A DNA stretch of 64,000 nucleotides, taken from the sequence record LC799789.1. One strand, given 5' to 3'. The position numbers are program-made. Origin of the DNA: a plasmid. Numbering within the stretch: the stretch's first letter is position 1; every line of letters starts with the position of its first letter. This document shows, in pieces, positions 51,501-57,500 of the stretch.

Positions 51501-54500
51501 AGCGAACCAACAGAGCCAAGCGAACCAACAGAGCCAAGCGAACCAACAGAGCCAAGCGAACCAACAGAGCCAAGCGAACCAACAGAGCCAAGCAAACCAA
51601 CAGAACCAAGCAAACCAACAGAACCAAGCGAACCAACAGAACCAAGTACACCAACGGAACCAAGTACACCAACGGAACCAAGTACACCAACAGTACCAAA
51701 CAAACCAGTAGACACAAACCCAATCGAAAACCCAGTTAATACAGATACAGGCGTTGTGATTGTTGCAGTTGAAGATAGTAAACCGATTATTCAATTAGCA
51801 AACGGAACAACAAAGAAAGTTGAAGCTAAAGAAATTGGTGCAAACGTTCAAAAAGACGGAACAGTAACGGTTAAAGGTTCAGACGGAAAAATGAAAGTTT
51901 TACCAAAAACAGGAGACACAGAAAATATTGCATTGTCTGTCCTAGGGTCATTAATGGTATTAGGATCAGCATTCATTTTTAAAAAGCGAATCTAATTAAG
52001 TATTTATAAAAGCGTGGTCGCAAGTTTCACTAGCAGCCATGCTTTTATTGAATCATTCTAGGACGTTTTGAAGGGGAATGTATACCTTAAAATTAAACAA
52101 GCGCTTAGAATCGTTCTAGGCAACACCAATAACATATTGCTAGTAGGTCGGCTTTTCTTTTCACTTGTTGCGAATACAAGCGTGTGAGTTAGAAAGCAAC
52201 TTGCTTGCCATCGTCTAATCATCTAACCAATGATCAACTAATGTGATTATTAGAACCACTAAAAGTGGTGCGATAACTAACGAGATAGGTTCTGTTGCAA
52301 AGTTTTCCAAAAAATCTATTTTAGTGTAACATTGAGAAAAAAGACAGAGAGGACAATATACTGCAAAATAATATTAAGTAGTGGGGGGGACTTATTGAGT
52401 ATGGGGATTGTAATGAGGCAGTATAATAATTTTTATATAAAATTTCAAAGACAGTTTAAGAAAGCTCATGGACAAGTTATAGAAACAATGCCATTAGAAT
52501 TTTCTAATAAAGAATATATAGAACGCTTTAAATATATGTTTCCAGATAAAATATTGCTGATAGAGAGGGAAAGAAATTATTGGTATGGAAAACGTATTAT
52601 TAGAAAGAATCTTTCCAAAATTCGATGTAAAGGTATGTCTTTAGAAACTGATAGTTTTATACTTTCAACTTCAAAACATATTAGGAAGATAAAAAGAGAG
52701 AGTCTAGCTAGTAACGAAGAGATGGTAAAAAAAGTAAATACTGCCCGAACAATATCTTTAGAAAAATTAAAAGCAGAGTCCTTGAGAAGCAAGAGAAAAT
52801 TAAATTATATTCAGGAAGTTGAACCTCCATATTTAAGGAATTATCGAAATAGATTCTTTAAAACTCATGATTTACATGAACGATTGGAAATTATAAGAGA
52901 ACTTTCTAAGTATGATTCAAAAGAAGTTCGGGAGTTTTTCTATGCAATAAATGGGCATATTAGAAATCAATCATTAAAAATAGAAGTTCAATCATATTTT
53001 CAGAGTTTATCTTTACCTTTTAGGTTGAGCAGAAAAAAGAAAGGTAAGAAGAATTTTATTGATAACGAAATTGTAAAAAATAAAAAAGGACCAGATGAAT
53101 TGAAAAAGAGATTATATATTAATGATTTAGAAAAGATAAAAAGATTTGATATATTCGTATCGCATAATTCTAGAGACGAAGAAAAAATTATAGAGTTCTA
53201 TAAAAAGTTCAATAAAAAAGGACAGGTAGTTTATATAGATTGGATAAATGATAAATACGATTTAAGGCGTGAATGGTGCAATGCCTCCACAGTTGATATT
53301 ATCAAGGAGCGTATAAAACAATCAGATGTTTTTGTATTATACTTTTCAGGAGAAACTTTGAATTCCCAATGGTGTACTTGGGAATTGGGATATGCTGACG
53401 CATTAGGGAAGAAGATATGTGTTTACTTCTCAGAAGATATAAATAGAAAAGGTATTCCAAAATTCTATGTAGCTTATCCTGAATTGCAAATGTCAAAAAA
53501 TATATATGTCAAAATTAGAGGGAACGAAGATATTTTACTTAAAGAGTGGAAAAAATTATAGGCTTATAATAAATTAGAAATGAGGGTAATATGAGACAAG
53601 AATTATTTATAAAAAAATTTTCGAAAGCTATACAAGAAGGAAATGCAGCAGTGTTTGCTGGTGCAGGAACATCGGTCGATGCAGGATTTGTTAACTGGAA
53701 AAACCTTGTAGCACCGTTTGCGAATGAAATTGATTTAGATATTGAAAAAGAAACGGATCTTGTAGGACTGACTCAATATTATATCAATAAAAAAAGAAAT
53801 AGAGGTTCGGTGAATCAAGAAATAATTGACCAATTTTCTAGTCAATATGCAGAAACAGAAGTTATGAATCTGTTAACACGACTTCCAATTTCTACATATT
53901 GGACAACTAATTATGATAAGGTAATTGAAAATGGCTTAAAAAATAATAATCGCAGAGGAGATATAAAAAGGAAGACAGATGATTTAGCAATCAGTATTCG
54001 TGATAGCGATGCGATTGTTTATAAGATGCACGGTGATGTAGATTCACCTAATGATGCAGTTATTTCAAAAGATGATTATGAAAGATATAGCGAGAAAAAC
54101 TCCCTATTTGTAACAGCTTTACGAGGTGACTTAGTTTCCAAAACATTTTTGTTTGTGGGGTTTGGTTTTGAAGATCCTAATTTAGAATCCATCTTGGGAA
54201 AGATAAAAAATTTACTTGGGGAGCGTACTAGAGATCATTATTGTATTCAAAAGAAGGTATTAGAGCAAGATTATAAAAATCGAGAGGAATATAGCTATGC
54301 TAAAATCAAACAAGAATTAAAAATAGAAGATTTGAAAAGGTACGGTATAGATACAGTTCTAGTTGATGATTATTCTGAAATACCTAAGTTGATATTAAAA
54401 ATAGAGGAAGAGTATTTTAAAAATACAATTTTTATTTCAGGTAGTATCTCCGATTACAATGAAAATTGGAGTCAAGAAAAGGTAAATCAATTCTGTTATA

Positions 54501-57500
54501 ATTTATCGCGTTCACTTGTTTCAAAAAATTATAAAATTATATCAGGGTTTGGACTTGGAGTAGGTAGTAGTGTTATTAATGGAGCTCTTGATGAAATTTA
54601 TAACACTAAGTATAGGCATGTCAGTGAGCATCTTGGATTATTTCCTTTTCCTCAACATGATGCTGGGGAAAAGTCTCTAGCTAAACGTTGGACTGAAAAT
54701 CGTGAACAAATGATCAGTGAGGCTGGGATCTGTATTTTTATATTTGGTAATAAATTAGTTAATGGTGAGGTAGTACTTGCATCTGGAATGATGGAGGAAT
54801 TTCGGATTGCTAAAGAAAGAGGAAAAGTAATAATTCCAATTGGTTCTACGGGGTTTGTTGCAAAAGAAATTTTTGATGAAATGAAAGAGTCAGGGGACTA
54901 TTCATATATAAACGATTATTGGAATGATTTAGAGAACGAAGAAGATGTTATAAAAGTTTTTAATACAATAAATGAAATTATTGAAGGAGTTAGATTTAGA
55001 TAATGGCAACAAAAGTATTTATTTCATTTCGTTTTAGTGATGGAAAAGAGATTAAAGATGAACTAGTTGATTTATTTGATGAATCTACTGAGGTAATTAA
55101 TAGATCAGAAGATGTTGATAGAAGTCAAATGAGTAAGGACACTATTCAGGAATATCTATATGAGAAGTTAAAAGATACATCGGTTACAATTGTATTATTA
55201 ACTCCAGAGGCCGTTTCTTATAGAAAGAATTGGATTGGAAATTACGATGATTGGATTTATGATGAACTTAGATACTCCTTGGAAGATAGAAATAACAACA
55301 GAGCAAATGGCGTAGTAGCAGTATATACAGATGATGCTAAAGATATGATACTAGAAAGTAGTTCACACTATTGTGCACATTGTCAAGAAACTAAATCATG
55401 TAGAACTTTGAAATCTTTTGACAATTTAGCACGAAAGAATATGTTGAATATAAAGCAAAGCTATAAGAAAAATCCATGTAATGATCTTTATGATGATAGT
55501 CATGACTCTTATATTTCTTTAGTAAGTTTGGAGGAGTTTAAACAGGATTATACTAAATATATTGATAATGCAAAAGATAAAAGAGATAGGCTACATGAAT
55601 TTAATATATATAAAAGAATGTGAAGAGCATTGATTTAGCATAAATTGTCTTTAGAATAAATGAAAAGGCAACACTTTTCTGTACAAGATTTATAAAGTGC
55701 TTTTGTTTGGACTAATGTCAAATATTTAGACACAAAGATAAAAAAGAAAAACGGAAATGGCTGTTTTTCTTTTTTATCTCATGTCCATAAAATAGTTCAT
55801 TTCTGGACACTGCTATTTTGGTATGATTTTTCTCTAAAAGAATTGAAACACGTGTCCATAAATCCATCACAAGTTCTATGTCAAATTAATCACCTTGGAT
55901 AAAGTTATGGAACAATGAAGTAAAAAAAAGAAAAGTGATTACCTCTCCTTTAACTACCGGAAGATTAACGTTTCAAGGCATTCTCAGAAAATCTGTAAGT
56001 AATTCAGCACTAAAACAATTTCTTAAAAATTGATCTTAGTAAACCAGAATCATCATCACCTGTATTGTAATATTCCTCATGGCTCTCATATATATTATCT
56101 TTTGAAATACTATTTTTAAAACCGCACTCAGTACATTTCCATGTATATTTATAGTCATCAAAATTATTTTGAGAATTCAGATGTGCCCCGCAACGGTCAC
56201 ACCACCAATCGGTATCTGGGAATCTTTCTGTCATAGTATATCTCTCCCTACATATTTAAAAATTTTTATAATTAATTTCAACATTTACCATCCAATATTA
56301 TACCTCTCAACTCCTTGTTGTAATAAATACTCTTTGAAATCTTTAATAAACTCATCTTCCTTATCAGGTGCATTACCATAATGACTAAATGTTCTAGTAG
56401 ACTCTTCCCAAGAAAAATTATAAACATATTCTTTCTCTGTTGAATCCCAGTCTGCATCTCCAAAAAATGTTATTTGTCCAGCTACCAATTCTATTTCTCT
56501 AGTATATTCCCCCGTATCTTCATCTACAATTGGAATCTCTACGCTAAAATCGTATGTTTTTTCGAATTCATATGACTTGAAATTACTATCATTATCTATT
56601 CCTACCATTTTCCTCACTCCTTTATTTTTTATTAGCATATAAATTTTAATCTTCTATAACAGGAAACTGCGCTTGCACTTCTTGGCGAATATTTTCAACG
56701 TTATTTGAAAAATCTGAAATTTTTTGAATAATTTGTTGAACAATCTCTTTTTCAATGGGATTTCTAATCTCATCTAACTCTTCAATACTAGGAATCACCA
56801 CGTTTTCTTCAGATTCATAAATATTATTTAGTATCATTAATAAATCATCTCTAGAAAGGTTTTCTGGCTCCACATTATTCTCACCTATAACAAACTTTGA
56901 TTTTCCTGAATTAACTATTAAGACTTTCATATATTTCTCCTTTCTTTTTATATGTTTCTATTCCTGCTTCCATTGCTTCTACAAATTTTTCATAGCTACT
57001 TTCAGTTGTATCTGATTTTGTAGAGATAAGATGAGAAGAAAATTCACCGGTAAGTACGCGATATCCCTTTTCTTTATCTTTCGTAGTCACTATTAGATAA
57101 TCTGGTTCCAGTAATGCTCCTAATGTTGAATTATGTGTAACCACAAAAACAGTGCTGCTTGCAGACAAATTCCTTATAGCATCTCTTAATTCCTTCCGAA
57201 TGTATTCATTATCAAGTGACGCTTCGGGTTCATCGATTAAAATTATTGGTTTTGTTTTTGCTTCTTCTAATCTCATCATTAGAGCAAATCCCACAGCCTG
57301 TCCCCCAGATGCTGGTACACCATCTGAATCCAGCAGGTTAACTTCTAAATGCAATAGATATTCTTCTAAAATAGAAGGATTAAAGAAACTTCTTTTTTTC
57401 AAATTCCTTAAAAATGTAATATACTGCCCACTTTTATAGGGAACAATTAAATCATCTTGAACTGCTTCACTTGTACGATCTTTTCTAAACTGAGTAGCAT

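Follow-up and report, generated by a model that had tools for sequence, protein, structure and literature searches.

The window analysed here is a 64,000-nucleotide stretch of plasmid DNA (sequence record LC799789.1), in which genes for a long TIR protein, a SIR2-SLOG protein (ThsA) and a short TIR-like protein follow one another on the plus strand (Table 1). As originally predicted, the three open reading frames (ORFs) are co-oriented and tightly packed: 29 nucleotides separate the long-TIR gene from thsA, and thsA overlaps the short-TIR gene by a single base within TAATG. The lengths predicted for ThsA and the short TIR protein agree with the ORFs, and all of the motifs that had been quoted (DIFVSHNSRDE, SQWCTWELGYA, YWTTNYD, YKMHGD and KVFISF) were found. 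Some details required correction. The first protein, given as 387 residues, has 386 when read from its ATG, and an alternative TTG start at 52332 would lengthen it to 409 residues. Its N-terminal domain, put at about 270 residues, comprises about 246, as the TIR domain starts near residue 249. Position 52288, given as the start of the locus, marks the beginning of an IS1216 inverted repeat; no gene starts there. The locus has a G+C content of 25-32% with a strong positive GC skew, whereas the flanking backbone has 35-41%, which is consistent with imported DNA. A terminator scan found none after the operon.

Table 1. Features of the Thoeris locus and of its surroundings, numbered from the first base of the window.
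Feature	Position	Strand	Description
thsB1-like gene	52401..53561	+	386 residues from ATG; all-helical N-terminal domain of about 246 residues (putative phage sensor or adaptor); C-terminal TIR domain, residues about 249-386, with F252 and E328
thsA	53591..55003	+	470-residue SIR2-SLOG (STALD) NADase effector
thsB2-like gene	55003..55623	+	206-residue short TIR-like (DUF1863-type) protein with F6 and E88 (putative gcADPR cyclase)
3' flank moving with the operon	55624..55824	+	ends the 3.48-kb segment common to Lactococcus petauri plasmid NZ_CP141702.1 (99.1%; blastn, window 52349-55824)
IS1216/ISS1-type solo end remnant, 68 bp	52288..52355	+	terminal inverted repeat GGTTCTGTTGCAAAGTTT at 52288-52305, exact match; left junction of the Thoeris segment
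Complete IS1216	59125-59933		right of the PDC-M49 module
IS1216 copy	2370-3181
Zinc-ribbon gene and 117-residue ORF	56010-56638	-	beside the PDC-M49 module
PDC-M49 candidate defence system	56646-58951	-	M49B at 56646-56930; M49A split into ORFs 58169-58951 and 56911-58227
LPXTG surface-protein gene	51162-51995		mostly tandem repeats
IS110-family transposase gene	48227-49462	-	between TrbL-like and TcpC-like transfer genes
Mercuric-reductase-like gene	32285-33925		HMA and Pyr_redox domains; adjoins ISL3 transposase (30721-33925)
DDE_Tnp_1_4 transposase gene	21675-22988		437 residues; between a 191-residue ORF and vanR
AAC(6')-APH(2'')-type bifunctional gene	8135-9574		flanked by IS256-family (Mutator) transposase genes, of which one is split (6513-10875)

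Each sequence test that could be applied points to a type I Thoeris system, as the architecture had suggested: in the profile searches proposed as a check, Pfam and PADLOC hidden Markov models (HMMs) match all three proteins. The long TIR protein matches the PADLOC ThsB profile PDLC00425 over residues 1-385 (a 389-position model; E = 9.6e-190), and its residues 25-347 match PDLC00426 (352 positions; E = 1.6e-47). ThsA matches the PADLOC ThsA profile PDLC00407 over its whole length (E = 8.2e-198), and the short TIR protein matches the ThsB profile PDLC00438 over positions 1-206 of 206 (E = 4.4e-119). In Pfam, ThsA contains SIR2_2 at residues 102-227 (96.8 bits against a cutoff of 24.5; E = 1.6e-27) and STALD at residues 263-465 (234.5 bits; E = 1.2e-69). 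Both TIR proteins match TIR_2 and ThsB_TIR, the latter above its gathering threshold in each case (31.6 bits for the long and 25.2 bits for the short protein, with a cutoff of 21.2). With E-values from 1e-8 to 1e-198, chance matches are ruled out. The short TIR protein gave no significant match to PDB sequences; its assignment as a ThsB follows from the Pfam and PADLOC matches and from its pairwise homology to other ThsB2-type proteins. In our view the locus very probably encodes a complete and ordinary type I Thoeris system that acts by abortive infection and has two TIR proteins (ThsB1/ThsB2). Standard defence-annotation tools would label it Thoeris automatically, and the exact three proteins are already present in NCBI under generic names.

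Over its whole length ThsA can be aligned with the solved structures 8wc0, 6lhx and 7uxt of ThsA proteins, and the likeness to the Bacillus cereus protein (BcThsA) that had been noted is borne out by a sequence identity of 45.6%. In the alignment N107 and H147 are the counterparts of the BcThsA catalytic residues N112 and H152. From the SLOG structure of BcThsA, Manik et al. (10.1101/2022.05.07.491051) listed eight residues in contact with 3'cADPR, and all eight are identical in the two proteins (G284, S285, L322, Q355, R371, K388, G399 and E403 of the window ThsA). The Enterococcus faecium protein EfThsA (WP_230207162), which is 45% identical to BcThsA, binds 3'cADPR with a dissociation constant of 59 nM, is activated by it and forms active filaments (Manik et al. 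2022; 10.64898/2026.03.01.708072). EfThsA and the ThsA described here agree in species, in domain organisation and in their identity of about 45% to BcThsA, but EfThsA was studied as the effector alone, without its cognate ThsBs or a plasmid context. The two may be one and the same protein, although WP_230207162 is not among the four accessions shown for the cluster that contains the window ThsA. The Thoeris system of B. cereus MSX-D12 (BcThsA, 6LHX and 8BTO filament; BcThsB) has one short ThsB, whereas the window locus encodes two TIR proteins, one of them with the helical N-terminal domain.

A database search with the long TIR protein returned 144 homologues, nearly all of 375-410 residues and matched over their full length, from sources that include Streptococcus suis, Lachnospiraceae, Blautia and Clostridium beijerinckii. 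Among these homologues the N-terminal and TIR parts are conserved to about the same degree, and in 40 diverse members F252 and the pair W327-E328 are invariant. The closest structural match of the TIR domain is BcThsB. An HMM of the N-terminal domains alone matches the N-terminal 250 residues of the long ThsB of Mammaliicoccus lentus (80 bits, E = 1e-26, in a single comparison) and a Vibrio chagasii plasmid protein (105 bits). The N-terminal domain had been put forward as a possible novel sensor module. We rejected this suggestion, as PDLC00425 spans the domain, the 144 homologues keep it and the long ThsBs of Mammaliicoccus and Vibrio are homologous to it; the domain belongs to the known ThsB1 family, a class with a published mechanism (10.1101/2024.07.29.605636).

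A SIR2-SLOG ThsA lies beside the long-TIR homologue in 16 of the 23 loci examined, and a short ThsB is usually present too in those that were checked for one. The B1-A-B2 order of the window recurs in Streptococcus mitis and S. infantis (71-72% identity), the close homologues of which are chromosomal, and in an Aerococcus contig (100%). Other gene orders are found in C. beijerinckii, in M. lentus and in Peptoniphilus, where ThsA is followed by a 163-residue ThsB and the long TIR protein. Several Lachnospiraceae long-TIR loci have no SIR2-SLOG ThsA within 5 kb. The long-TIR family is consistently tied to TIR/SLOG signalling systems. Some distant homologues belong to larger TIR/SLOG arrays. The C. 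beijerinckii locus (L009, 2161-9126) encodes a SIR2-SLOG ThsA and five proteins with a TIR domain, namely the long TIR protein, a TIR-SLOG fusion and three short ThsBs. In a Lachnospiraceae-type locus from a gut metagenome (L012, 1087-6173) the long-TIR gene adjoins that of a TIR-SLOG fusion (LD_cluster2), in an array that also encodes an Nmad2 protein but no SIR2 ThsA. The contig of Aerococcus sp. 1KP-2016 (L028, 482-3700) carries the same trio as the window, with a long TIR protein that is 100% identical; its ThsA is read as two overlapping pieces in different frames, apparently through a frameshift or an assembly error.

A characterised system with a long and a short TIR protein is the type I Thoeris of Staphylococcus aureus 08BA02176 (Roberts et al., 10.1101/2024.07.29.605636), which consists of ThsA, ThsB1 (41.8 kDa when tagged, putative site F242/E318) and ThsB2 (23.4 kDa, F6/E81). 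Sau-ThsB1 binds the phage major head protein and recruits ThsB2, and the synthesis of 1''-3' gcADPR, the product that activates ThsA, needs the ThsB2 active site only (10.1101/2024.07.29.605636). The window locus has the same three components, namely a long TIR protein with an N-terminal extension and a C-terminal TIR domain, a short TIR protein and a SIR2-STALD ThsA. Residues F252 and E328 of its long TIR protein keep the 76-residue spacing of F242 and E318, F6 and E88 of the short TIR protein compare with F6 and E81 of Sau-ThsB2, and the motifs DIF(I/V)SH and W..E agree as well. In this comparison S. aureus ThsB1 and ThsB2 were represented by peptides translated from the published mutagenesis primers. 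The two systems differ in gene order, which is B1-A-B2 in the window and is written as thsA/B1/B2 in the S. aureus paper, and the window locus differs further in its Enterococcus host and its location on a vanA conjugative plasmid.

A genome scan for long-TIR loci returned no Staphylococcus locus. A tblastn search of plasmids found a M. lentus plasmid in which genes for a long TIR protein (364 residues), a short TIR protein (202 residues) and a SIR2 ThsA (481 residues) are adjacent. The window proteins share 28% identity with the long TIR protein (E = 1e-25, residues 6-341), 32% with the short TIR protein (E = 3e-20) and 46% with the ThsA (E = 4e-131) of this plasmid, and E88 of the short TIR protein is aligned with the glutamate of the ThsB2 homologues. 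The Sau-ThsB2 peptides in turn agree with M. lentus ThsB2 at 14 of 18 and 18 of 22 positions, with E81 in register.

The plasmid that carries the locus had been described as a VanA/Inc18 conjugative resistance plasmid. The VanA part of this description holds: NCBIfam models for VanR-A, VanS, VanH-A, VanA, VanX, VanY-A, VanZ-A and a Tn3-family transposase match at 17.7-29.9 kb, all of them above their curated cutoffs (803.5 bits against 775 for VanA). The Inc18 label appears to hold for the backbone. Window positions 34558-48105 and 49724-52126 share 92-96% identity with the transfer region of pRE25, a plasmid typed in PLSDB as Inc18, MOBQ and conjugative, and the identity reaches 93-99% in other blocks of the backbone. 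The window Rep has a PriCT_1 domain and shares only 51-52% identity with the two Reps of pRE25. The window also encodes MobQ, VirD4, a zeta toxin, ParA and a topoisomerase. The Thoeris locus is found where the transfer operon of this pRE25-like conjugative backbone ends, and the backbone also carries Tn1546 (vanA). In pRE25 the operon ends with an LPXTG gene, after which come a helix-turn-helix gene and a copy of IS1216. In the window the LPXTG gene is followed by the IS1216 remnant, the Thoeris operon, a PDC-M49 module on the opposite strand and the complete IS1216. The module was therefore correctly described as bounded by IS1216 on its right side, whereas on its left only the 68-bp remnant is present, which matches insertion-sequence (IS) ends in 876 plasmid records.

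The identical locus is found intact in many Enterococcus assemblies (197 index blocks), and the same junction recurs. A PLSDB search returned the locus in one plasmid record only, L. petauri NZ_CP141702.1, and in no Enterococcus plasmid record, though many draft Enterococcus assemblies carry it. The L. petauri plasmid is a 23-kb mobilizable RepB plasmid without vanA. Its segment is 99.1% identical over 3478 bp, with the upstream IS-end remnant included, but it has about 245 bp more between the remnant and the operon, and its ThsA has 468 residues rather than 470. The presence of this segment with the same remnant on the L. petauri plasmid points to IS6-family-mediated exchange among lactic acid bacteria, and the locus was apparently gained through an IS1216/ISS1-type event from a pool common to Lactococcus and Streptococcus. 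In the literature on Thoeris together with Enterococcus, plasmids or vancomycin, which was covered mainly through titles and abstracts, no title or abstract concerned this locus or plasmid.

Some further features of the plasmid were noted. Over its first 24 kb the window shares 99.4% identity with pEF0656-2, a non-mobilizable vanA plasmid of E. faecium; with its second half resembling pRE25, the window looks mosaic, and a cointegrate origin is plausible. The IS110-family insertion in the transfer region has no counterpart in pRE25 or in contigs L002-L004 and L006, is present in contig L005, and could have polar effects on conjugation. The LPXTG-anchored surface protein at the end of the transfer operon is encoded mostly by tandem repeats (a 9-bp unit repeated 12 times and an 18-bp unit repeated 15 times, with 95-96% matches), and its length varies from 243 to 294 residues among otherwise near-identical contigs. 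The 191-residue ORF separated from vanR by the DDE_Tnp_1_4 transposase gene would be the Tn1546 resolvase, by position and length only, and the transposase gene would then be an IS insertion within Tn1546. A bifunctional gene of the AAC(6')-APH(2'') type and a mercuric-reductase-like gene, each associated with transposase genes, lie elsewhere in the window (Table 1).

Adjoining the Thoeris operon is a second candidate defence system, which PADLOC assigns as PDC-M49. A 2-bp deletion near 58207 breaks its PDC-M49A gene into two ORFs; the gene is intact (680 residues) in contigs L003, L004 and L006 and in the Enterococcus casseliflavus plasmid pEc378. By eye, the start of PDC-M49A contains an HxH-like motif of the PHP type (DFHIHT; no Pfam match); at its end lies an AAA_21/SMC-type ATPase. 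Between M49B and the Thoeris operon lie genes for a 74-residue zinc-ribbon protein (Pfam zf-Sec23_Sec24) and a 117-residue protein without a family match. The same two-gene order is found beside PDC-M49 in pEc378, a plasmid without Thoeris, so that both may be components of the PDC-M49 module and not of Thoeris.

From the characterised systems we infer a trigger, a relay between the two TIR proteins, a signal and an activity in Enterococcus as follows. During infection the long, ThsB1-like TIR protein would recognise a phage structural protein, which by analogy with S. aureus would most likely be the major capsid protein in its assembled form; the helical N-terminal domain of the long TIR protein probably contributes to this recognition. 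The long TIR protein would then recruit and activate the short, ThsB2-like protein, which would use its F6/E88 site to cyclise NAD+ to 1''-3' gcADPR (3'cADPR). This signal would bind in the SLOG pocket of ThsA, causing ThsA tetramers to stack into filaments in which the SIR2 domain (N107/H147) would hydrolyse NAD+, and the infected cell would no longer support phage replication. Filament formation and NAD+ depletion have been shown for the ThsA proteins of B. cereus, S. equi and E. faecium (10.1101/2022.05.07.491051; 10.64898/2026.03.01.708072).

Several observations weigh against this interpretation, and the first of them concern the relay. The Sau-ThsB1 peptides agree with the M. lentus long TIR protein at only 11 of 24 and 11 of 18 positions. 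The chain of homology from the window through M. lentus to S. aureus appears to hold, but its last link is an indirect one that runs through primer-derived peptides. As the identity to the S. aureus-type ThsBs is low (28-32%), the trigger may differ. The invariant glutamate of the long TIR protein, moreover, suggests that this protein may itself be an enzyme, in contrast to S. aureus ThsB1, in which the equivalent glutamate is dispensable (10.1101/2024.07.29.605636). The remaining observations concern expression. A promoter scan gave 20 sites where 24.8 were expected, none of them above the shuffled background. The stretch of about 245 bp upstream of the L. petauri operon is missing in the window, which retains 52 bp of shared sequence before the start codon.

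An alternative within type I Thoeris is that the two TIR proteins are independent parallel sensors, each of which makes gcADPR in response to different phages; a multi-ThsB model of this kind has been proposed for Bacillus. The conservation of E328 and F252 in all 40 of the diverse homologues is what would be expected of an active enzyme, the long TIR domain is structurally closest to BcThsB, which is a known cyclase, and long-TIR homologues are accompanied by short ThsBs of different families and are found in arrays of as many as four TIR genes. However, the only system of the same architecture that has been tested, that of S. aureus, needed both ThsBs while only the ThsB2 active site mattered, and most of the loci checked for a short ThsB have one as well as the long protein. 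We consider parallel sensing the main alternative, though an unlikely one, and favour the relay from a ThsB1-like sensor to a ThsB2-like cyclase.

The observations on expression bear instead on whether the locus, although intact in sequence, is silent or non-functional cargo that has hitchhiked in a decaying accessory region shuffled by IS1216. The loss of upstream sequence and the promoter scan agree with this, as does the 2-bp deletion that disrupts the adjacent PDC-M49A relative to its intact copies. Against it, all three ORFs are full length and have lost none of their catalytic and ligand-binding residues, many independent Enterococcus assemblies contain this junction and identical proteins, and read-through from the co-oriented transfer operon could provide transcription. 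A silent locus is in our judgement improbable. Still more improbable is a role mainly in the service of the plasmid and not of host immunity, in which NAD+ depletion would make the system an addiction or stabilisation module, or a weapon against competing mobile elements. Its place on a conjugative plasmid, with the PDC-M49 module as a neighbour and partition and toxin-antitoxin genes close by, would fit such a role. All characterised SIR2-SLOG/TIR Thoeris systems, however, respond to phage and protect against it, and the close homologues in S. mitis and S. infantis are chromosomal.

The locus leaves the understanding of Thoeris itself unchanged. Its interest lies in its setting, where a pRE25-like transfer backbone physically joins vanA to a phage-defence operon and to a decayed second one. 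It is well established in general that plasmids carry defence systems along with resistance genes. Through this linkage, antibiotic selection could spread phage resistance and phage selection could spread antibiotic resistance. The linkage also bears on the phage therapy of vancomycin-resistant enterococci, although the practical point is a modest one. Tentatively, and as a possibility that we hold at somewhat less than even, the N-terminal domain, at about 28% identity to the staphylococcal-type sensor, might respond to another determinant of the phage, for instance enterococcal capsids or a different structural protein. Its fold of about 246 residues, which has no specific solved relative, would in that event be a structurally new capsid-sensing module, and, if the locus is active, one conjugation event would pass on vancomycin resistance along with immunity against a defined phage class.

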